Below, piece by piece: positions 4,899 to 21,738 of a stretch of 31,761 bases of DNA. Position numbers and translations under genes: made by a program. The notes beneath the pieces were generated by a model that saw only the letters and a program-made list of their open reading frames with translations, ran no database searches and had not been told where the DNA came from. This DNA is from Pseudomonadota bacterium (GTDB taxonomy: Bacteria > Pseudomonadota > Alphaproteobacteria > UBA1280 > UBA12223). Numbering within the stretch: the stretch's first letter is position 1; the number at the start of each line of letters is the position of its first letter. The stretch is from positions 1 to 31,761 of the forward strand of contig PTJW01000001.1 in assembly GCA_002937495.1 (NCBI GenBank), given 5' to 3'.

Positions 4899-4934
4899 TG
4901 ATTTTATTGTATAAAAGATATATATTAAAGTCAA
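4898..4934. promoter_or_regulatory. Overlapping divergent sigma70 promoters for rnpB (+) and the M48 gene (-)
   Basis: Plus strand: TTGATT 4898-4903, 17 nt, TATATT 4921-4926. Minus strand: TTGACT 4934-4929, 17 nt, TACAAT 4911-4906, then 7 nt to ATG 4898. Confidence 0.75.
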
Positions 4935-5318
4935 GAAAAGGCACTGGGCTACTGCTGGTTTTTGCTATTTTTTTAGACAAAAACGAGAGGAAAGTCCGGG
5001 CACCGTAGAAGAGGATTCCAGGTAACTCCTGGCGGTATCACACGATATTAGGGAAAGTGCAGCAGAAAATAACCGCCTATTTTCAATAGGTAAGGGTGAA
5101 AAGGTAAGGTAAGAGCTTACCGCTGCTTTTAGTAATAAAAGTGGGTCAATGTAAACCCAATCCGGTGCAAGACCAAAAGCGCTGTTAAAAGCTTGTTCTT
5201 CGCAAGCTAGCGAGAATGGTGGGTTGCTCTGACCTTATTAGCAATAATAAGGCTAGATGAATAGTAGCACAGCAAGTTTTTACTTGTGGACATAACTCGG
5301 CTTATAGGTGCCTTTTCT
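4934..5318 (+). ncRNA. rnpB: RNase P RNA, bacterial type A
   Basis: GAGGAAAGTCCGGGC, GGAAAGTGCAGCAGAAA, GGTAAGAGC, TAAACCC...GGTGCAAGACCAAA, CTAGATGAAT, ACATAACTCGGCTTA; P1 ends AGAAAAGGCAC/GTGCCTTTTCT. Confidence 0.97.
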
Positions 5319-5320
5319 AT

Positions 5321-5352
5321 AAAAAAACGACTCTTTTAAGAGTCGTTTTTTT
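5321..5352. terminator. Bidirectional terminator shared by rnpB and the fumC-kinase operon
   Basis: AAAAAAACGACTCT-ttta-AGAGTCGTTTTTTT. Confidence 0.88.
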
Positions 5353-6793
5353 GTTGAGTAATTTTACTTATTGATGCTCTTTCTGCCATTAAACTAACAA
5401 TAACTGTTGTTCCATGGTTTTCTATAGAGTGTAATGAAATTTCACCTTTTAAATTACTTAAAATAAGTTTTGAAATAATTAAACCTAAACCAAAACCTTT
5501 TGTATTTAATTCTTTATCGCTAAGTTTTAAGCTTGAATTAATAGATTCTAACCTTGATTTACTCATACCTAAGCCAGTATCTTCAATACAAACTTGGTAT
5601 TTTATATATTTAGAGTCAATTTTAGAAGCTGAAAAATCAACTTTAACATAACCTTGTTTTGTAAAAGCAATAGCATTATCAATAATATTTTTTAATGCTA
5701 CTTTTAACTTTACAACATCTGTTTTTACATAAATTTTTTCTTCTAAGTCATTATTATCATAACTCATTTTAATATTAGTACTATCAGGTAATGCCATTTT
5801 TGATTCTTTATAAGCCAGGTATACTACATCTGATAATATACATGGAGAATAGTTAATTGGCGTACTTGATTCTTTAAGCTCTAAATAAATTAAAACATTA
5901 ATAATTTGATTTAATAATATATTTGAAGACTTTTCAATAAAAGAAAGTTCAGAATTGTTAGATGCTTCAGGATTTTTAATTTTAATTAAATCAATAGCCC
6001 CCATAATACCATTTAATGGAGTTAAAATACTATTTGTAATATTTGTTAAAAGTTGACTTTTTTGAATATTCTGAATTTGGCTATTTTTATGTTCATTTAA
6101 AACTTTACTACTTGTATCTTTTATTATGTTAATTAACTTAGCCAACTCATCAGGTTGATTTGAAGTTTTAATTTCTAAACTATCTATATCACCATTTTCA
6201 ATATGATTAACAATATTATATAAATCATCTACTCTTTGTAATAAAACTTTTAATACAAAGTGGTAAACCACGATAATACATAAGAAAATAATAAACCATA
6301 CTGCTAAAATATACCTAGTAATACTAATTGATGTATTAAGCAAATCTCTGTTTGAAATAGTAATTTCAAGCTCGCCTACTTTATGGTTATCATATACTAT
6401 TTCATAAATTTTAGTTCGGTAATAATCACCTAAAAATATTCTTGCTAAAGAAGGTATTGGTCCGTAACGCTCTGGTCTTAAGTCTTTAAAAATTTTTTCT
6501 GTTAAAGGCTCAGAGTATTGATCTTTAACTACTATTTTTTGAATAACATTTGTTCTTGCTACATCTAAATGTTTTGAGAAGTTTTCTAAATATTCTTCTA
6601 AGCCCAAGATATCATTAATCATAAGCATAGGCATAATTTCTTCTTGTAAATATAGGCTTGTATTGTCTGTATATTGTAAGTTTGACTCTACATATCTTGT
6701 ATTTATTTTATGAAATGCAATAACTGCAAAAAGTAACATTAAAACAGTTTGTATAGTTACAAGTAATATAAAAATTTTATTTCTTAATTTCAT
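5336..6793 (-). CDS. Membrane-bound sensor histidine kinase-like protein lacking the phosphoacceptor His (pseudokinase)
   Basis: Two TM segments around a periplasmic domain, then a HAMP-like linker. H-box reads LLTNITNSILTPLNGIMG, against canonical FLANMSHEIRTPLNGIIG. N-box LKNIIDNAIAFT, G1 IEDTGLGM, G2 GFGLGLIIS. No receiver domain. Confidence 0.85.
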   Translation of the reverse strand: MKLRNKIFILLVTIQTVLMLLFAVIAFHKINTRYVESNLQYTDNTSLYLQEEIMPMLMINDILGLEEYLENFSKHLDVARTNVIQKIVVKDQYSEPLTEKIFKDLRPERYGPIPSLARIFLGDYYRTKIYEIVYDNHKVGELEITISNRDLLNTSISITRYILAVWFIIFLCIIVVYHFVLKVLLQRVDDLYNIVNHIENGDIDSLEIKTSNQPDELAKLINIIKDTSSKVLNEHKNSQIQNIQKSQLLTNITNSILTPLNGIMGAIDLIKIKNPEASNNSELSFIEKSSNILLNQIINVLIYLELKESSTPINYSPCILSDVVYLAYKESKMALPDSTNIKMSYDNNDLEEKIYVKTDVVKLKVALKNIIDNAIAFTKQGYVKVDFSASKIDSKYIKYQVCIEDTGLGMSKSRLESINSSLKLSDKELNTKGFGLGLIISKLILSNLKGEISLHSIENHGTTVIVSLMAERASISKITQQKNDS

Positions 6794-7289
6794 CTAAATT
6801 ACTACTCATTTGATTCTTTAATTCTAATTTTTTAGCTTTTACTAAATTATTAATATTATCTTTAAATTTATTTAGGTGATCTCCTGAAATATTTTTTCTA
6901 TTTATAATATAGTAAATATCTTTTGTATTTACTATACCATTAATAAGCCTTTGCTGAACAGCTTCGTGTAATGGAAAAATTTCATACTCTTGTTTATCTA
7001 CTATATTATCATACTGGAATTTACTTACTACTGCAAAGTCATATAAATCAAGTTTAATGAAATCTTCATATTCTGAAATTGTTTTTGTAGTTGCCATTTT
7101 AAATTTAAATGACTCGTTTTTTGTCATATCTTGTAAAAATGGAGTCCAAGTTTCAAATGTATATTGTTTACTAAAAATTGGTAGAACTCCAATTGAATAC
7201 ACTGTGTTTTCTTTATAAGCTATTACATCATCAGCAACTGCAAATGATGTAGAAAATAAAGCATATAAACACACAATAAGTTTTTTCAT
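6777..7289 (-). CDS. Exported, truncated PhnD-like periplasmic substrate-binding protein (170 aa)
   Basis: Signal peptide MKKLIVCLYALFSTSFAVA; IGVLP...WTPFLQDM...YEDFI...YDFAVV resembles the first lobe of phosphonate-type binding proteins; overlaps the kinase start by 17 nt. Confidence 0.62.
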   Translation of the reverse strand: MKKLIVCLYALFSTSFAVADDVIAYKENTVYSIGVLPIFSKQYTFETWTPFLQDMTKNESFKFKMATTKTISEYEDFIKLDLYDFAVVSKFQYDNIVDKQEYEIFPLHEAVQQRLINGIVNTKDIYYIINRKNISGDHLNKFKDNINNLVKAKKLELKNQMSSNLDEIKK

Positions 7290-7290
7290 T

Positions 7291-7956
7291 TCAACCTCTA
7301 TTAATCTTTGAATCTTGTATAAATTGTTTTGTATTATTATCTAATTCGCCTGATATATTATCAGATAAGAATCTTCTTTGAAAGGCTTTTATAACATTTT
7401 TTTCTCCATATGTTATATTATATCCAAAATCAGTTAAATTAGATATATAATCAGTGGTATTACTCAACTTAGAAAAGTCTACAGCTAAATTATTTTCTAC
7501 TAAAACAGACCAATTAAACCTTGCTCCAGGGTCTGTTTTTCTATCACAAGAAATATCCGAATGCGCTATAATATTTTCTGCTTTAATTTTATATCTACCT
7601 TGTAAGTCTTTTAGTAATTCAATTAAAGAATCATACTGCTGTTTAGTGTATCCACTTTCATTACCTAAAGTTCCTGTATTACCTAACTCTATGCCAATAG
7701 AATTAGTATTAAGCATTTCATCATTTTTCCATTTTGAAACACCTGCATGCCAGGCTTTTTTATTATCAGGCACTAAGTTGTATATCTGTCCATCTCTAGC
7801 TATAAAATAATGCGCAGAAACCCCATTGGCTTCTGCACATAAAAATTCTAAAGATGTTTTATCATCAAAGCACATACAATGCAGAACAATATATTTTGGA
7901 TCTATAGTTTCATCTGCAAAGTTTGGGCTTTGATATTTAGTATTTATTTTTACCAT
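7291..7956 (-). CDS. N-acetylmuramoyl-L-alanine amidase (Amidase_2, AmpD/AmiD-like) with C-terminal peptidoglycan-binding remnant
   Basis: YIVLH, VSAHYFI, AWHAGVSKW, NTNSIGIELGN, AHSDI...RKTDPG, AFQRRF. Confidence 0.92.
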   Translation of the reverse strand: MVKINTKYQSPNFADETIDPKYIVLHCMCFDDKTSLEFLCAEANGVSAHYFIARDGQIYNLVPDNKKAWHAGVSKWKNDEMLNTNSIGIELGNTGTLGNESGYTKQQYDSLIELLKDLQGRYKIKAENIIAHSDISCDRKTDPGARFNWSVLVENNLAVDFSKLSNTTDYISNLTDFGYNITYGEKNVIKAFQRRFLSDNISGELDNNTKQFIQDSKINRG

Positions 7957-7967
7957 TCAAAAATCTT

Positions 7968-8984
7968 TTATTTATCTAATGATTTTGTTCTTGCTATTTT
8001 TTGATTAAATAAGTATAAAGAACCTCTTTCAAGTTTACCACTTAATCTAATAAACTTAGCATCATTTTTAGATATAAGCCTTTTTAACATTGGTAAGCTC
8101 TTAATATCTAAATCATCACTACCTGAAAATGTTGAAATAATTTTTTCTGCTGTTTCAACATCACTTGCAATAACATCTAGTGGTCCTACAACCCTATGCC
8201 TTTTATCAATCTTAAACTTATTAACTAGTTCAAACCATTTTTCTTCATCTACTAGTTTCATATTTTCAATATTAATAATTGCATTAGATTTATTTAAAAA
8301 TTCTAAGTTTTTAGTAAAGTACTGTTTAAACTCGTCACCTTCTAAAATAGCCATGTTTAATAAAATAGCATAAACATCTGTTTGGCTAATATTTTCTAGT
8401 TTAGCTTTAAGTAAAATAGAATCAATCATGTAGTCTCTAATTTTTAAGTTCTTAAAGTTAACTTCAAACTTTGATGAATCTGACAAGCTGCCTTTGTAAT
8501 AAAACTTATCTGCTTTTAAAATTAGTTTATTTGCATCTACATCAAAAATCTTTAGTTCTGTTAAATCAAAAGTTACAGTATCATCTAAAAAGTTTAAATT
8601 AACTATTTTAGCCTGTACTTTAAATTTCTTTAATTCGCCATTGTAATTAAATGTAAACATTTGTGATGTTGGAACACTAATATCAGCTTGTTGTTGTAAA
8701 ACAAATGGGTAAATATCAAAAACTACATCACCAACTTTATAGTGAATTTCATTATTTGAATTTTTACTGTCAAATCTTAAATTTTCAACTTTAATATTAA
8801 TATTATTAGGATAACCTGAAGTAATAATATTATCATATTCAAAGTTAAACTTACTTGATTCTTTTAATGTTGTTTCAATAGCTATAACTCTTTTTTTGGC
8901 CATAAAGTCCCAAATAAAACCGTAGCCTAGTAAAATAATACCTACTGATACTGATACTGAAAATAAGAATTTTAAAAATCTCAT
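7968..8984 (-). CDS. Membrane-anchored periplasmic protein, DUF2125-like
   Basis: N-terminal TM followed by ITSGYPNNINIKVENL (sGfP-type motif) and a beta-rich body. Confidence 0.55.
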   Translation of the reverse strand: MRFLKFLFSVSVSVGIILLGYGFIWDFMAKKRVIAIETTLKESSKFNFEYDNIITSGYPNNINIKVENLRFDSKNSNNEIHYKVGDVVFDIYPFVLQQQADISVPTSQMFTFNYNGELKKFKVQAKIVNLNFLDDTVTFDLTELKIFDVDANKLILKADKFYYKGSLSDSSKFEVNFKNLKIRDYMIDSILLKAKLENISQTDVYAILLNMAILEGDEFKQYFTKNLEFLNKSNAIINIENMKLVDEEKWFELVNKFKIDKRHRVVGPLDVIASDVETAEKIISTFSGSDDLDIKSLPMLKRLISKNDAKFIRLSGKLERGSLYLFNQKIARTKSLDK

Positions 8985-13158: not shown

Positions 13159-14253
13159 CTACATGCTTTCACGAGCTATAGAATCTAAACTTTGCATAGT
13201 TGCTGTAATTTCTTCAATAGCAGTAGATTGCGATGAAATCATATCATTAACAACCATATTACTTTTAACAATTTGTGACGTTACTTCATCAACTACCACA
13301 ATACCATCTGATATTTGCAGTGAGCCAGATAAGATTTTTTTTAATGAATATTCAATTTCATTTACTGAGCTACTTGTTTGATCTGCCAGCTTTTTAACTT
13401 CATTTGCTACAACTGCAAATCCTTTACCTGCATCACCTGCTCTTGCTGCTTCAATTGATGCATTAAGTGATAATAAGTTTGTTTTTGTCGAAATATCCTG
13501 AATTAAAATTAAAATATTTTTAATAGAATCAATATCTGTATTAAATGATTGTGCAGCTTTATTTAATAAACTTAATGACTTTTTAGAGTCAGCAATTAAA
13601 CTCTGGCAACTGTTATTTTCTGATAAAATAGTATTAACTGCAATACTAACATCTGATGTTGCTTGAGTTGATTCTGCAATACCTAGTGTTAACTGACCTT
13701 TAATTGCTGTCTGGTGAGCTAATAACTCATCATGTTTCTGGTTAGATAACTCAATATAAACATTAACTGAAATGGCAATATCAATATTACTTAGCTTTAA
13801 AAACTGTCTGTAAATATTATCTAAAAATTCATTACTATATTTTTGATATTTAGGAAATAATTTATTTTTACTATTTATTTTGCACTTTTGAATTTCTTCA
13901 AATAAAGTTTGTTGAACTTTTGAATAACCACCAATGTACCAATCTGGTGTTAAGTTAATTTTAACATGCGACATGCCAACTCGTTTAACTCGTTGCTCAT
14001 AGCCTTCATCAAAACCATTTTTAAATAGATACTCCCAGTAAGACTTTTGTGCTGCTTTAATTTCTTCTAAAGTTCTACTAGATTTATTAAGAACCACCAC
14101 TAAATCGTCAAATTGTACTATATATTCATAAAAACTATCCATTAGAATATCCATAGTACCCGTTTCATCTAAAAATAGTTTTAGATTTTCAAAATTTGTA
14201 TTAGGCTCTAGCTGATAGAAATTAAGTAAATCCGCAATATTTCTCTTTTTCAT
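13159..14253 (-). CDS. Globin-coupled sensor: protoglobin domain plus MCP signalling domain (HemAT-like soluble aerotaxis receptor)
   Basis: SFYEYI (B10 Tyr), [17 protein letters not shown] (proximal His), WYIGGY; [33 protein letters not shown]; no TM segment. Confidence 0.9.
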
Positions 14254-15404: not shown

Positions 15405-16874
15405 CTACTTTCTAATTTCTTGAATTTTATCTGAAACCTCTCTGGCACTATTTGATGCCTGTCCCATTCTTTCTGAAATATCATTTGTTGCACTTCTTTG
15501 TTCTGACATTGAAACTACAAGCACTTGAGTAAACTCATTAATAGAATTAATTTTAGTAACAATATTTTCTATTGACTTTACAGAGTTATCACTATTATTC
15601 TGTATTTTATTAACTTGCTCTGTAATATCTTTTGTAGCTGAAGATGTTTGTTGCGCTAGCTTTTTAACTTCTTCTGCTACTACAGCAAAACCTCTACCTT
15701 CCTCACCAGCTCTTGCTGCTTCAATTGATGCATTAAGTGCTAATAAGTTTGTTTTTTCTGCAATCTCTTGAATTAATTTTACAACTTCTCCAATTTTTTC
15801 TGCACTAATATTAAGTTCATGAATAGTTTCTCGACCTTCTGTAGCCTCTTCTTTAGCTAACATTGTCATATTACTTGTTTCATCTACTTTAATACCAATA
15901 TCTTCTAATGTAGCTGAAAGTTGGGCTGCTGCTGTTGAAATTCCTACAACATTTTCTTCTACAATTGATGAAGCATTTGCAACATCTGATGTAATAGTTT
16001 GAATTTTTTCTTTATTTTCTAACTCTAGTCTTTCTTTTTCTGCTTCTGTTGACATTTCTAAAGCTTGTTTTTCAGCTGCGCTTTCTTGAAAAACTTTAAC
16101 ACACTGTGCCATCATACCTATTTCATCTTTTCTTGTCATATCAATTTTAATATCAATATTATCATTAGCTAAGTCTGTCATATTACCTTGTAAGTTTAAT
16201 AATGCTCTCTTAAAATCAATAAATATAATCATAAAGATAATTAGAACAGCTAAAATAATTAGAGCTAACTCAATAACAATAACTGTAGTAAAGTGTTTTT
16301 GTTCTGCATGCATGTTACCAAAATAAACACCTGTACCAATCATCATATCTAAAGGCTTAAAGTACTTAATATAAGCCACTTTAGTTTCTATTAATTTTGT
16401 TTTTGGATTCTCAAATTCATACTCTATAACACCTTGGCCTTTTGTTTTAGCTAAGTTAGCAAACTCTTGAATAAAGTATTTGCCTGTGCTGTCTTTTAAG
16501 TTATATAGAGACTTACCTTCTAAAGCAGGTTTAGCTGCATGATTTTGCACAATACCTTTTGTATCAATAATAAAAATATAACCCTGACCATCATCAAAAA
16601 TCATATCATCAATTTCATTATAATATTGCTCAAGCATTATATCTAATGACATTTGGTTATTTTCAACTTGCTTATAAAGTTTTTCAACTCTATTATAAGC
16701 TAAAGTAATTACAGTTTCTAACTCTTCGATTTTACCAATTTCAAAAGTTGAGTTCTTTTGATAAATCATATAAAAACTTGAACTTACCATTACACAAAAA
16801 ATACCTGCAATAAGTAAAATTAATTTTGTACGAATAGTCATAGTTCTTAGTAAATATTTTATAAGTCTGATCAC
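15405..16874 (-). CDS. Methyl-accepting chemotaxis protein 1 (TM, sCache_2, TM, HAMP, MCP signal)
   Basis: GYIFIID..G...H....LEG.....KD..GK, K.AY, GTGVY; RKDEIGMMA (HAMP); [33 protein letters not shown]; GTG start with AAGGA SD. Confidence 0.95.
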
Positions 16875-16924
16875 CTTAAACAGTCCTTTATTTTTTTTAT
16901 TATAAAAATACTAATAGCATAAAT

Positions 16925-16954
16925 ATAGTATCAGAGAATTTCTATATAATGCAA
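16925..16954 (-). promoter_or_regulatory. MCP-1 promoter
   Basis: TTGCAT, 18 nt ending TTCTCTGa, TACTAT. Confidence 0.55.
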
Positions 16955-16970
16955 TAGCTACTTATATATA

Positions 16971-17008
16971 AAAAAAAATGAGTGGCAGATTTACTACTCA
17001 TTTTTTTT
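16971..17008. terminator. Terminator of MCP-2
   Basis: AAAAAAAATGAGTGG-cagattta-CTACTCATTTTTTTT. Confidence 0.75.
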
Positions 17009-17024
17009 ATGGGTTTATTTATTA

Positions 17025-18479
17025 CTATGATCTAATTTCTTGAATTTTACATGAAACCTGCCTTGCTCCTTCTGAAGCCTGCTCCATTCTTTCTGAAATA
17101 TCATTTGTTGCACTTCTTTGTTCTGTCATTGACACTACAAGAATTTGAGTAACTTCATTAATTGCATTAATTTGTTTACCAATATTTTTAATAGCTTTTA
17201 CTGAGTTATCACTATTTGATTGAATCATTCCTACTTGTGAATTAATTTCACTAGTAGCTGTTGAAGTTTGCTGAGCTAGTTTTTTAACTTCTTCTGCTAC
17301 AACTGCAAAACCCCTTCCTTCTTCACCTGCTCTTGCAGCTTCAATTGATGCATTAAGAGCTAGCAAGTTTGTTTTTTCTGCAATCTCTTGAATTAATTTT
17401 ACAACTTCTCCAATTTTTTCCGCTCTTGAATTTAACTCGTGAATTGTAGAGTTACCTTTCTCAGCCTCTTCTTGCGCTAGCATTGTCATGTTACTTGTTT
17501 CATCTACTTTAGTACCAATATCTTCTAATGTTGATGACAACTCTGCTGCTGCTGTTGAAATTCCTCCAATATGCTCCTCTACAACTGTTGATGCATTAGC
17601 TACATCTGTTGTAATTTGATAAATCTTACTTCTATTTTCTTCTTCAAGTCTTAATTTTTCACTTTCTGCTTCTGATTCTAAACGCATTCTTTCAATTGTG
17701 TTGGCTTTAAATACTTCTACGCATTTAGCCATCATACCAATTTCATCTTTTCTCTCAGTATCAATTTCAACATCAACATTACCATCTGCTAATATTGTCA
17801 TATTATTTGTTAGTTTTTTTAATGATTTATTAAAATCTACCATAATTAAAATAAATAAAAATAATACAATTACAAATACTGGAGCAATATGTATAACACT
17901 TTGCTGTATAAGATCATTTTCTTTAGCATAAATTTTATCTAAATAAATACCTGATGCAATAATAATATCTAATGGAGCATAATATTTAAAATAAGCTGCT
18001 TTATTTGTAACTTCTGTTGAATTTGGTTTTTTGTATGAATACTCAACTAAACCTTCACCTTTAATTTTTGAGATTTCTGTCATCTCTTTAATATAAGCAC
18101 GTCCCTGGCTATCTTTTTTACCAATTCTATTTGTGCCTTCTAGTTTTTGATTTATAGCATTTTTTAATACTGTACCATTAGAGTTATATAAGAACATATA
18201 GCCTAAATCACCATTATATCTCATTGAGCTAATTTCACTGTAGAATAAATTTCTTATATATTCTTCAGATAAATTTCTTATTTTCATTTTTTCATCAAGA
18301 TCTTTTAACCTAGAATGTGCCGCCTCTACAACTGAAATTGATCTATTGATTTCACCTTGTTTAAAAGTTTTAATTTCATCAATTAATAAAATTGCATTAG
18401 ATGCCAGCATAGAAGTAAGCATAATAAACAATAGAATTAATAACTTAGCCTTAATTGAAATAAGTCTGAAAATAGTCAT
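17025..18479 (-). CDS. Methyl-accepting chemotaxis protein 2 (sCache_2)
   Basis: Same architecture as MCP-1; start is probably ATG 18479 (the AAGGTG SD overlaps the track's GTG at 18488). Confidence 0.95.
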
Positions 18480-18560
18480 AATATACACCTTTTTATTTTT
18501 ATTTAATCCGCATTTTTTGATTGTAGTTATATTTAATAGATAAAAAATATAACATTTTAT

Positions 18561-18589
18561 ATATTACAATATATTCATATAAAATGCAA
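18561..18589 (-). promoter_or_regulatory. MCP-2 promoter
   Basis: TTGCAT, 17 nt, TAATAT; shares AGCTATTGCAT context with the MCP-1 promoter. Confidence 0.55.
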
Positions 18590-18617
18590 TAGCTTATATG
18601 AGTCAATATAATAAAGT

Positions 18618-18645
18618 AAAGGACCCTAAATAATTAGGGTCCTTT
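18618..18645. terminator. Terminator of MCP-3
   Basis: AAAGGACCCTAA-ataa-TTAGGGTCCTTT. Confidence 0.82.
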
Positions 18646-18660
18646 ATATTAAATTAAAAT

Positions 18661-20121
18661 CTATGATCTAATTTCTTTAATTTTGTATGAAACTTCTTTA
18701 GCACCATCTGCTGCCTGAGCCATTCTCTCTGAAATATCATTTGTTGCAGTTCTTTGTTCTGTCATTGATACTACAAGATGTTGAGTAAACTCATTAATAG
18801 AATTAATTTGCTTAGCAATGTTTTCAATTGCAGTTACTGAATCATCACTGTTTGATTGAATCATATTAACTTGTGAGTAAATATCACTTGTTGCTGCTGA
18901 TGTTTGTAAAGCTAACTTCTTAACTTCTTCGGCTACAACTGCAAAACCTCTTCCTTCTTCACCTGCTCTTGCTGCCTCTATTGATGCGTTAAGTGCTAAT
19001 AGATTTGTTTTTTCTGCAATTTCTTGAATTAGCTTAACTACTTCTCCAATTTTAACTGCACTTGCATTTAATTCTTGAATTGTAGAGTTTCCTTTTTCTG
19101 CTTCTTCTTGAGCTAGCATTGTCATATTGCTTGTTTCATCTACCTTGGCACCAATATCCTCTAATGTTGATGATAACTCTGATGCAGCTGTTGAAATACC
19201 TGTAATATGCTCTTCTACAATATTTGAGCTTGATGCAACATCTGTTGTAATTTGGTGAATTTTAGCTCTATTTTCCTCTTCCATTCTTTGTTTATCAGCT
19301 TCTTGCTCACTTTCAAGACGGATTCGTTCTATTGTATTTTCTTTAAAGATTTCTACACATTGTGCCATTTCACCAACTTCATCTTTTCTTGTTAAATCAA
19401 TATCAACAGAAACATTATTATCAGCTAATTCAATCATATCTTTTTTAAGTTTTTTAAGAGCATTGTTAAAGTCAATAAATACTAAAATAAAGAATACTAG
19501 TACAAATAAAGCTACAATGCTTAATTCAACCATAATCTGTTGCTTAATTACTGCTTCTTGTTTACTAATATCATCCATGTAAACACCAGTACCAACAATT
19601 AAGTCAAATGGAGCAAAGTATTTTACATAAGCCATTTTATCTACAATTTCCATTGAAGGTGGTTTCTTATATGCATAATCAACATAGCCACCGCCTTCGT
19701 TTACTGCAACTCTTGTAATTTCACGAGCCATGTATTTACCGTTTGGATCTTGCCAATCCCAGTCATTAGTCCCATTAATAGATGCATCAGGCGGGAAAAG
19801 AACATTATCGCCAGCTTTATTCATTAAGAAAATATAACCTGTTCCATTATCATACCACATTGAATTAATTTCACTATAGTATAAGTTTCTTACATATTCT
19901 TCAGATAAACCTCTTTCGTTCATTTTCTTATGTAGGTCTTCAAGCCTTGTATAAGCAACATCAACGATTGACTTAATTTTATCTAGCTTACCTTCTTCTA
20001 ATACTTTAAGATTTCCATTCATATGAGAAACGCTAAGACCAAACATGATGCTAAGCATTAAAATTATTAGAAAAATAAGCTTTGTTCTGATTGTAATAAA
20101 TTTTAGAAAATTCATTTTCAT
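18661..20121 (-). CDS. Methyl-accepting chemotaxis protein 3 (sCache_2)
   Basis: Same architecture; AAGGAG SD. Confidence 0.95.
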
Positions 20122-20162
20122 AACTCCTTATTTATTATTTTTATTATGATTGTATAATTAAA

Positions 20163-20191
20163 ACCTTACCAGAGAACTCAAGTTTTTACAA
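20163..20191 (-). promoter_or_regulatory. MCP-3 promoter
   Basis: TTGTAA, 17 nt ending TTCTCTGg, TAAGGT. Confidence 0.45.
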
Positions 20192-20226
20192 TGATTTTTT
20201 TAATGACTATAATCATTTTTTACAAT

Positions 20227-20258
20227 AAAAAAAACAACACCACCAAGGGTGTTGTTTT
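20227..20258. terminator. Terminator of MCP-4
   Basis: AAAACAACACC-accaag-GGTGTTGTTTT. Confidence 0.8.
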
Positions 20259-20283
20259 CTTATATTTTTACTACTATTTTAAA

Positions 20284-21738
20284 CTAATCTCTAATTTCAT
20301 TAATTCTTACAGAAACTGCCTTAGCACCGTCTGCTGCCTGAGCCATTCTTTCTGAAATATCATTTGTTGCAGTTCTTTGCTCTGTCATTGATACTACAAG
20401 GTGTTGAGTAAACTCGTTAATTGAGTTAATTTGTTTACCAATATTTTCAATTGAAGTTACTGAGTTATCACTATTTGCTTGAATCATATTAACTTGTGAG
20501 TAAATATCGCTTGTTGCTGCTGATGTTTGAAGAGCTAACTTTTTAACTTCTTCAGCTACAACTGCAAAACCTCTTCCTTCTTCACCTGCTCTTGCTGCCT
20601 CAATAGATGCATTAAGCGCTAGTAAGTTTGTTTTTTCTGCAATTTCTTGAATTAACTTAACTACTTCTCCAATTTTAATTGCACTTACATTTAACTCTTG
20701 AATTGTTGCATTACCTTTTTCTGCTTCTTCTTGAGCTAGCATTGTCATATTGCTTGTTTCATCTACTTTAGAACCAATATCTTCTAATGTTGATGATAAT
20801 TCTGATGCAGCTGTTGAAATACCTGAGATATGCTCTTCTACTAAGCTAGAGCTTGAAGCAACATCTGTTGTAATTTCATGAATTTTAGCTTGGCTTTCTG
20901 CTTCAATTCTTTGTTTTTCTGCTTCAGCTTCTTGCTCTAAACGCATTCTTTCAATAGTATTGAACTTAAATACATTAACACATTCTGCCATTTCACCGAT
21001 TTCATCTTTTCTTGTCAGGTCAAGTTCTACTGATGTATCGTTGTTAGCTAAATCAACCATGTTTGTTTTAATGCGTTTTAAAGCATTGTTAAAGTCAATA
21101 AAAATTAAGAAGAATAATGCTAAAACAAAAGCAGATAATATTAAAATTTTTAAAATAATTAAATCAGTCATTTCCTTTTTTTGTAAATCAACATCATCCA
21201 TATAAACACCTGATCCTAAAACTAAATCGAATGGTTCAAAATATTTAATAAATGCCATTTTTCTTGCTGGCTCTGTAATACCTGGCTTAGCATAGTGGTA
21301 AAATGTTAAACCTTCGCCTTTTGTTTTCGCAATAGAAACCATATCTCTAACGATATATTTACCTGTTACATCAACATCATCCCATTCACTGATACCTTCA
21401 ATTGATGGATCTGTTGGCTGTAGCATATTAATACCTTTACTATCATAGGCAAAAACATAACCTTTACCATCATCATACCACATTGAGTGCATTTCACTTT
21501 TAAATAAGTTTCTTACATACTCTTCAGATAATCCCCTTGTATCCATTTTTTGCTTAAGATCCACTAATCTTGTATACGCCATATCAACAGCAGATTCTAT
21601 TTTTTCTATTTTACCATTCTCAAGGTGCTTGAAATTCTCTTGTAATGCAGAAATGCTGAAACCTACAAAAATTACAAGAATTAAAGAAATTAGACAAATC
21701 AATTTTGTTCTAATTTTAATATATTTTAAGACATTCAC
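20284..21738 (-). CDS. Methyl-accepting chemotaxis protein 4 (sCache_2)
   Basis: Same architecture; GTG start with GAGG SD; closest in sequence to MCP-3. Confidence 0.95.

Follow-up and report, generated by a model that had tools for sequence, protein, structure and literature searches.

The window analyzed here is the whole 31,761-nucleotide (nt) stretch of contig PTJW01000001.1 (assembly GCA_002937495.1), from a Pseudomonadota bacterium of the alphaproteobacterial lineage UBA1280/UBA12223, and its minus strand carries a sensor-kinase gene, P0001, in which the phospho-acceptor His of the H-box is replaced by Asn. It is highly probable that this gene encodes a functional pseudokinase that derives from a hybrid kinase, has parted with the receiver (REC), the His and the autophosphorylation residues, and is maintained by purifying selection. 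The gene, the domains of its product and the upstream gene coupled to it are laid out as follows (TM, transmembrane segment; aa, amino acids; residue numbers are those of P0001).

5336..6793, minus strand: pseudokinase gene P0001, 485 aa, an intact open reading frame (ORF) with matches to HATPase_c and HisKA and an alignment to PDB entry 7z8n
6713..6775, minus strand: TM1, residues ~7-27 (Kyte-Doolittle 19-residue window, peak 2.8)
6317..6712, minus strand: periplasmic sensor domain, residues ~28-159 (~130 aa), between the two TM segments
6242..6316, minus strand: TM2, residues ~160-184 (hydropathy peak 2.85)
6065..6241, minus strand: HAMP-like linker, residues 185-243, from transitive alignment to hybrid kinases (HAMP is not called by Pfam)
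5864..6064, minus strand: DHp domain without phospho-acceptor, residues 244-310 (sub-threshold HisKA match)
6008..6046, minus strand: degenerate H-box, residues 250-262, with the Asn254 codon AAT at 6032-6034
5378..5776, minus strand: CA (HATPase_c) domain, residues ~340-472 (Pfam match at 359-469)
6777..7289, minus strand: coupled upstream gene P0002, 170 aa, encoding a secreted, PhnD-like, half-size binding protein (Phosphonate-bd match)

That is, P0001 runs from TM1 through a periplasmic domain, TM2 and a HAMP-like linker to the DHp and CA domains. The CA domain is a clear HATPase_c by Pfam (residues 359-469, 57.3 bits vs. a cut-off of 26.4), and the DHp matches HisKA below threshold (residues 244-301, E-value 2.8e-4, 21.3 bits vs. 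a cut-off of 26.9), a weak match that recurs in all five members of the family described below (best E-value 7.4e-6). Fold homology over both domains is evident from 7z8n, the best PDB sequence match (E-value 3e-20), which aligns gap-free over residues 243-469. The periplasmic domain and the linker show no Pfam family in any member, even at an E-value of 10; the neighbors of the periplasmic domain by language model are CHASE8, LapD_MoxY_N or sCache_4 sensors with HAMP, which we take as a lead only, and the profile can be aligned, starting at about residue 130, to hybrid kinases in which Pfam places HAMP at the equivalent of 170-220. TM1 is 48-89% identical among orthologs. No PAS domain was found in any member of the family (Pfam, up to an E-value of 10), and no Response_reg match was found anywhere on the 31.8-kb contig or in the orthologous loci. 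An AlphaFold2 model of the whole of P0001, built on a 3-row alignment, had a mean predicted local distance difference test score (pLDDT) of 52, and only its secondary-structure order was used.

In the H-box, FLANMSHEIRTPLNG of 7z8n stands gap-free opposite LLTNITNSILTPLNG of P0001, with the His replaced by Asn254, the +1 Glu by Ser255 and the +3 Arg by Leu257. Across 377 aligned homologous kinase cores, the column of the phospho-acceptor holds 369 His, 5 Asn, 2 Tyr and 1 Gln, and Asn occurs there in the pseudokinase family only (one of the 5 Asn rows being a fragment of the window's own protein). A motif census, in which each motif position in the family was compared with the 369 canonical cores, identified the following losses.

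His: canonical 100%, family Asn (lost)
+1 Glu/Asp: canonical 100%, family Ser/Asn (lost)
+3 Arg/Lys: canonical 97%, family Leu (lost)
N-box Lys: canonical 98%, family G/A/D/I (lost)
F-box Phe, position 419: canonical 91%, family K/N/Q/T (lost)
F-box Phe, position 422: canonical 90%, family Leu (lost)
First Gly of G2 (G433): canonical 98%, family G/G/I/L (partly lost)

The +4 Thr is kept in the family (T, T, T, T, S; Thr in 98% of the canonical cores), the +5 Pro is present in all members (canonical 100%), and the +7 Asn and +11 Gly of the DHp are retained as well. In the CA domain, N369, the Mg-binding N373, D405, G407, G409, G435, G437 and G461 (the Gly of G3) are invariant in the family. Thus, the family carries the transmitter-phosphatase motif (Thr/Asn at H+4 and Pro at H+5, as defined in PMC3510030), and its CA domain has an incomplete set of boxes (N, G1, F, G2), lacking the Lys of the N-box and the two Phe of the F-box.

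An earlier reading of this DNA from its letters alone (the sequence-only reading) had described an intact 485-aa ORF with two TM segments and a periplasmic domain, an H-box aligning without gaps to the hybrid-kinase consensus with H replaced by N, E by S and R by L, recognizable N, G1 and G2 boxes vs. an unrecognizable F-box, and neither a receiver domain nor an adjacent response regulator. All of this is borne out, by the ORF and the hydropathy profile, by the 7z8n alignment, by the invariance of N373, D405/G407/G409 and G435/G437 vs. the lost Phe at 419 and 422, and by the absence of any receiver on the contig. Absent from that reading were the loss of the N-box Lys, the selectivity of the losses, the coupling to the PhnD-like gene and a DHp-CA-only form of the protein, to which we return below.

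The family to which P0001 belongs is small. We searched 5.8 billion protein clusters with a word-indexed method and 1.84 billion representative proteins exhaustively with HMMER. The word-indexed search returned one full-length ortholog (P0004, 46% identity), a second ortholog is encoded in a genus-mate genome (G001), and the HMMER scan added P0122 (479 aa, from a marine metagenome) and P0123 (233 aa), with scores falling from 223 to 161 bits, where generic giant hybrid kinases start. Marine or sediment relatives are the source of all five members, and no match beyond the own genus was found among the 60 genomes of relatives searched. Asn occupies the former His site in all five, down to 42% identity, and its codon is always AAT, one transversion away from CAT (His). 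In the window, the Asn254 codon is covered with zero differences by contigs from two independent marine metagenome studies (X1 record 4, spanning 5666-6551, and X3 record 27, spanning 6023-6246). We therefore rejected a sequencing error at the His codon, given AAT in all members and the agreement of the contigs from the two studies. No alternative His is conserved in the DHp of the five members; two private His, at residues 274 and 288, are found there in P0122 only, and the one His common to all four full-length members is in the G3 region, where P0123 has Gln.

The family also bears the marks of selection. All ORFs are intact across 42-46% identity, and the ratio of nonsynonymous to synonymous substitution (dN/dS; Nei-Gojobori) between the two closer orthologs is 0.131/0.825 = 0.16, with regional values of 0.12 for the sensor, 0.22 for the DHp and 0.14 for the CA domain; deeper pairs are saturated at synonymous sites, so that their higher dN/dS values are overestimates. 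In these deep pairs, identity amounts to 55-63% in the DHp, 42-51% in the CA domain, 28-43% in the periplasmic domain and 26-45% in the linker. That is, the His-less DHp is the best-conserved domain at the protein level and the periplasmic domain and linker are the least conserved, as would be expected if the DHp surface were the working part. The canonical His is not available to the protein, nothing conserved stands in for it, and the protein is functional in the evolutionary sense. A decaying gene on its way to becoming a pseudogene might have been suspected from the tiny family, the small, AT-rich, streamlined genomes and the one truncated member, but such decay is hardly credible. The selection data all but refute it (a dN/dS of 0.16, and an invariant Asn in five members that are intact at 42-46% identity), and the high conservation of the DHp, the coverage of the gene by RNA-library contigs and the preserved translational coupling speak against it as well. 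The sequence-only reading, which had taken the protein for a pseudokinase and not an incipient pseudogene, with the His loss conserved across orthologs at a dN/dS below 1, holds up here (Asn in 5/5, dN/dS of 0.16), and the counter-evidence it had named, i.e., reads or orthologs with His at this position or a nearby alternative His, did not emerge (the contigs agree on AAT, and no DHp His is conserved).

As to its origin, the family, with its five members restricted to one lineage, branched off from ordinary hybrid kinases of the TM-HAMP-HisKA-HATPase-REC type. The best NCBIfam matches of P0001 are TorS (100.8 bits), LuxQ (97.6) and BarA (88.0), all far under their cut-offs and limited to the kinase core, and those canonical relatives whose alignment extends into the linker and TM2 are hybrid kinases with a short N-terminal sensor, HAMP at ~170-220, HisKA at ~240-305, HATPase, REC and, in some, Hpt. 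The TorS/LuxQ/BarA-GacS hybrids, the nearest sequence relatives, share with the pseudokinase the same order and spacing of TM, sensor, TM, HAMP, DHp and CA, and the flank of their H-box (...N-x-S-H-E-I-R-T-P-L-N-G-I...) is recognizable in it residue for residue. Because the domain spacing is the same, we regard the protein as a hybrid kinase that has dropped both the receiver and the chemistry of a kinase. Unlike these hybrids, the pseudokinase is devoid of the His, the +1 Glu/Asp, the +3 Arg, the N-box Lys and the F-box, has neither receiver nor Hpt, and carries a periplasmic domain unrelated to theirs in sequence. The idea of a degenerate BarA/GacS serving the REC-GerE regulator encoded on contig C65 of the same genome was dropped, given a score of 88 bits against a cut-off of 890 for the BarA model and the lack of a receiver or Hpt.

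His-less kinase relatives are an established kind (DivL, PsmA, RocA, RcsD), and the family described here has neither architecture nor ancestry in common with them. RcsD of E. coli is a His-less transmitter (as cited in PMC3842833) and, unlike the pseudokinase, carries a phosphate-relaying Hpt domain; PsmA of Streptomyces is a His-less kinase relative (PMC12963549) with a variable residue at the His site; and RocA, a CovS-binding membrane pseudokinase of group A Streptococcus (PMC7028121), has six TM segments, a degenerate CA domain and a His that is kept but dispensable. All three resemble the pseudokinase in being kinase-derived regulators shown or argued to be non-phosphorylating, but none shares its architecture or its combination of Asn with a retained Thr-Pro pattern. 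New, in our view, are the selective pattern of loss, the frozen Asn, the coupling to a half-size PhnD-like protein and the natural truncated form. Hence, of the "separate pseudokinase class" proposed in the sequence-only reading, the distinct His-less family stands, while the class label is generous for a five-member offshoot of hybrid kinases.

The surroundings of the gene point to a paired unit. On the minus strand, fumC is followed by a gene for a 338-aa membrane-anchored protein of unknown function, an AmpD-like Amidase_2 gene (no signal peptide), P0002 and the pseudokinase, with intergenic gaps of 30, 11 and 1 nt from fumC to P0002; the P0002 stop overlaps the pseudokinase start by 17 nt, and the same overlap is present at P0004. 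This gene order recurs at P0004 and P0122, and the pair is conserved in three lineages. Three genomes from sister families within the same taxonomic order keep the fumC-unknown-amidase block and have nothing similar after the amidase, and because the pair is absent from these syntenic sites, we view it as a lineage-specific insertion. A functional link to the AmpD-like amidase was rejected since the block is conserved without the pair, i.e., the adjacency is positional. The 338-aa unknown (7968-8984, minus strand) is anchored in the membrane by its N-terminus and matches neither Pfam nor NCBIfam; it always lies between fumC and the amidase, in at least three families of the order (including loci L047, L048 and L050).

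The insertion also bears on the possibility of reversed signaling as in DivL, an alphaproteobacterial, selected, His-less HisKA/HATPase protein of Caulobacter whose kinase core serves as the sensor of DivK~P (PMC4211667; preprint 10.1101/812529). Under this hypothesis, the pseudokinase would bind a phosphorylated single-domain receiver without hydrolyzing the phosphate and report the receiver's state to another protein, and single-domain receivers are indeed encoded on contigs C80 and C130 of the genome. However, DivL, which carries multiple PAS domains and a Tyr at the site, is a conserved cell-cycle factor with neither a periplasmic sensor nor a binding-protein partner, whereas the pseudokinase has Asn and no PAS (effector) domains, as the sequence-only reading had already held in calling its architecture unlike that of DivL. 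Its locus, in turn, provides both a periplasmic sensor and a coupled binding protein, which argue for normal outside-in signaling, and the family is a recent lineage-specific insertion (the pair being absent at the three sister-family syntenic sites) and not a core cell-cycle gene. We thus consider DivL-like signaling improbable.

P0002 has a signal-peptide-like N-terminus and about 60% of the normal length of a binding protein (its orthologs have 172-187 aa), and it matches Phosphonate-bd over profile positions 1-73 of 242, within the first 70 mature residues (E-value 7.5e-6); PF12974 is also the precomputed Pfam call for its ortholog at locus L044. An AlphaFold2 model of P0002 (pLDDT 59, predicted template modeling score 0.62) had no Foldseek match in the PDB at an E-value below 1, with a few binding-protein chains in the noise, and co-folding of residues 28-160 of the pseudokinase with the mature PhnD-like protein scored 0.30 against a mark of 0.32, which speaks neither for nor against binding. 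TorS and LuxQ receive their input via a separately encoded periplasmic binding protein (TorT and LuxP, respectively). A partnership of the small periplasmic protein with the sensor domain is best supported by their joint loss in locus L046, where the binding-protein gene and the sensor/TM/linker half are missing together. The member encoded there, P0123 (L046:411-1112), is a soluble, 233-aa, DHp-CA-only protein. It starts right at the DHp, the gap to the amidase gene being 158 nt, and keeps the Asn, a +4 Ser and the +5 Pro; its existence shows that the DHp-CA module is useful alone. Metatranscriptome contigs (from two RNA libraries, of strains ~92% identical) cross the amidase/P0002 and P0002/pseudokinase junctions, which is suggestive of co-transcription across these junctions, with DNA carry-over being possible.

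With respect to what the protein does, the losses are selective, i.e., the kinase-only residues are gone and the phosphatase/receiver-docking motif is kept. According to saturating mutagenesis in HisKA kinases, the acidic residue at +1 is required for the kinase reaction alone, the Thr/Asn at +4 for the phosphatase reaction alone, and the +5 Pro matters to the latter as well (PMC3510030). The His itself makes a modest contribution to phosphatase activity in CrdS and EnvZ and is essential in PleC; for instance, CrdS H371A retains most of the activity, CrdA~P having a half-life of 2.6 min with the mutant vs. 0.7 min with the wild type and 53 min alone (PMC3510030). Since the losses and retentions match the residues that this mutagenesis separates, the family resembles a kinase-minus, phosphatase-plus allele fixed in nature.

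In the nucleotide pocket, the contacts to adenine and Mg are kept and those to the phosphate and the lid are lost. Alternatively, the CA domain might still use ATP with another acceptor, either as a Ser/Thr/Tyr kinase (of the anti-sigma or BCK/PDK-type GHKL kind) or by phosphorylating the His of a CA-dead partner in a mixed dimer. Strong purifying selection on the CA domain (dN/dS of 0.14) and its invariant Mg-binding Asn, G1 Asp and Gly, and G2 core would be consistent with such an enzyme, but it would have to operate without the N-box Lys and both F-box Phe, with a variable G433 and with the +1 general-base Glu/Asp gone. Moreover, no CA-dead partner was seen; all other HisKA kinases found in the genome carry their own HATPase_c. 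We accordingly give this alternative little probability.

Our best explanation, which we favor tentatively, is that the pseudokinase is a signal-gated, kinase-dead transmitter phosphatase, or else a receiver-binding phosphate sink, for a receiver phosphorylated elsewhere. Under this hypothesis, the homodimeric DHp would dock a receiver phosphorylated by another kinase or phosphorelay, and the +4 Thr and +5 Pro would speed the hydrolysis of its aspartyl-phosphate or at least hold the receiver, with the amide of the invariant Asn at the former His site possibly contributing. Nucleotide bound by the CA domain would serve not as phosphodonor but as a cofactor, structural or allosteric. The PhnD-like protein would bind a small ligand and then the periplasmic domain, as in TorT-TorS or LuxP-LuxQ, and the HAMP-like linker would turn this periplasmic input into on and off states of the DHp. 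The DHp by itself has phosphatase activity, which the CA domain enhances (reviewed in PMC3510030); the same paper mentions the use of amide side chains by CheX and CheZ, which are dedicated phosphatases, and by NarX. By analogy, the strict invariance of Asn hints at an amide role, given that the site differs in DivL (Tyr) and PsmA (variable), although this is speculation.

The phosphatase reading has support in three precedents, i.e., the DHp-alone activity just mentioned, the +4 Thr of RetS acting in trans, and the split of roles between PvrS and RcsC. In P. aeruginosa PA14, the kinase role belongs to PvrS and the phosphatase role to RcsC, and RcsC H502A has little effect whereas T506A abolishes the phosphatase phenotype (PMC3842833). 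RcsC is, hence, akin to the pseudokinase as a hybrid-type sensor that behaves as a dedicated phosphatase, with an essential +4 Thr and a dispensable His, but it keeps the His, the receiver and the relay function that the pseudokinase has lost; the latter would be the evolutionary end point of an RcsC-type division of labor. RetS of P. aeruginosa is likewise a membrane-bound sensor-kinase relative that acts, without autophosphorylation, on the pathway of another kinase: its +4 Thr makes it a trans-acting phosphatase on the GacS receiver (PMC5992135), and it blocks GacS via contacts of the two catalytic cores (PMC5992135, PMC8498467). In terms of degeneracy, however, RetS is a mirror image of the pseudokinase, with an intact H-box (HExxT) and a degenerate CA domain, and its 7TMR-DISMED2 sensor and two receivers have no counterpart in the latter.

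The same precedent underlies the main rival to our explanation, with which it is compatible, namely, a modulator of the RetS/RocA kind. Here, the His-less DHp-CA module would form a heteromer with a true kinase (NtrY, the hybrid encoded on contig C69 or the C80 PAS kinase), and the periplasmic signal would tune the autophosphorylation or phosphatase activity of this partner, with no action of the pseudokinase itself on a receiver. The DHp being the most conserved domain, the presence of RetS chains (6dk7, 6dk8) among the PDB sequence matches, the RetS-GacS core contacts, the binding of CovS by RocA (PMC7028121) and the same HisKA subtype in the C69 hybrid are all in line with such modulation. 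Nonetheless, no co-occurring partner was found, the C69 hybrid having no close ortholog in G001, and the model does not require the retained +4 Thr, +5 Pro and nucleotide pocket; as an account in its own right, we find it rather unlikely. The sequence-only reading had proposed heterodimerization or sequestration of a phosphorylated regulator, and because the +4 Thr and +5 Pro are kept and the kinase-only residues are lost, a phosphatase-only role is at least as likely.

For the favored phosphatase or sink, potential receivers are at hand in the metagenome-assembled genome (MAG; G000, 1.0 Mb, 31% GC). The MAG encodes NtrY/NtrX, CheA, CheY, CheB and two Hpt matches; a REC-HisKA-HATPase-REC hybrid on C69, cut by the contig end, whose H-box (...SHEIRTPL...) is of the same HisKA subtype; a PAS kinase with a single-domain receiver on C80 and a further single-domain receiver on C130; and two regulators without adjacent kinase, the REC-GerE on C65 and a REC-SpoIIE (PP2C phosphatase; C129:1720-2901). 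Since receivers without an adjacent kinase, a hybrid kinase and Hpt are all encoded, phosphorelay targets for the pseudokinase exist, and we consider REC-SpoIIE and REC-GerE the candidate downstream targets. The C69 hybrid has no clear ortholog in G001, which carries the pseudokinase, and co-occurrence is thus uninformative as to the partner.

It is important to note that several observations weigh against a phosphatase or sink. The requirement for the His differs among kinases, and PleC H610A loses its phosphatase activity (as cited in PMC3510030); docking of the receiver might suffer, too, from the +1 and +3 substitutions; and the H+12 specificity position is an invariant Ala, which is atypical given F, M, L or I in canonical cores. 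None of the loci has a response regulator next to the gene, and the MAG is 73% complete, so that its two-component inventory is partial. Finally, the binding-protein similarity is weak, the window's copy of P0002 falling below the Pfam cut-off, and the structure models of P0001 and P0002 are of low confidence.

A more specific version of our explanation would be a ligand-gated, His-less, dedicated transmitter phosphatase in which the Asn amide orients water or phosphate as in CheX, CheZ and NarX, the input comes through a one-lobe PhnD-like protein, and the whole represents the end point of a kinase/phosphatase split between sensors; this is possible, but we regard it as doubtful in its entirety. 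Only a handful of histidine pseudokinases have been studied (DivL, PsmA, RocA and RcsD, as well as RetS in a different sense), and the role of a kinase core after the loss of its His has been answered case by case. The family described here is a clean natural experiment in this respect, with the kinase-only residues removed, the phosphatase, docking and nucleotide-pocket residues kept, the Asn frozen and a natural DHp-CA-only truncation existing beside the full-length sensor, within the practical limits of five members from uncultured marine bacteria. If the phosphatase reading is true, a kinase/phosphatase separation like that of PvrS and RcsC can become hard-wired, and the family would provide a minimal model for transmitter-phosphatase chemistry without His.

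The downstream end of the gene is marked by the following element.

5321..5352, minus strand: terminator hairpin (-16.1 kcal/mol, z -6.3), with the pseudokinase stop in its loop and a T-run after it

This palindromic hairpin probably also ends the convergent rnpB, which encodes the RNase P RNA (bacterial class A; 4936-5320, plus strand; a full-length model match of 253 bits) and likewise follows the pseudokinase in the orthologous loci. A scan for promoters returned 30 matches, fewer than the 36.7 in shuffled sequence, and is uninformative in AT-rich DNA such as this. RNA libraries X14 and X20 (seawater and estuary) match the operon over 4900-8000 at ~92% identity, with rnpB at very high depth; close relatives of the lineage are therefore present in coastal waters, where they are probably active. 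Elsewhere in the window, a protoglobin-MCP (HemAT-like) gene (13159-14253, minus strand) and four tandem sCache_2/dCache_2-HAMP-MCP paralogs of 484-489 aa (15405-21738, minus strand) flank rpsD, a large investment in chemoreceptors for a genome of ~1.4 Mb.

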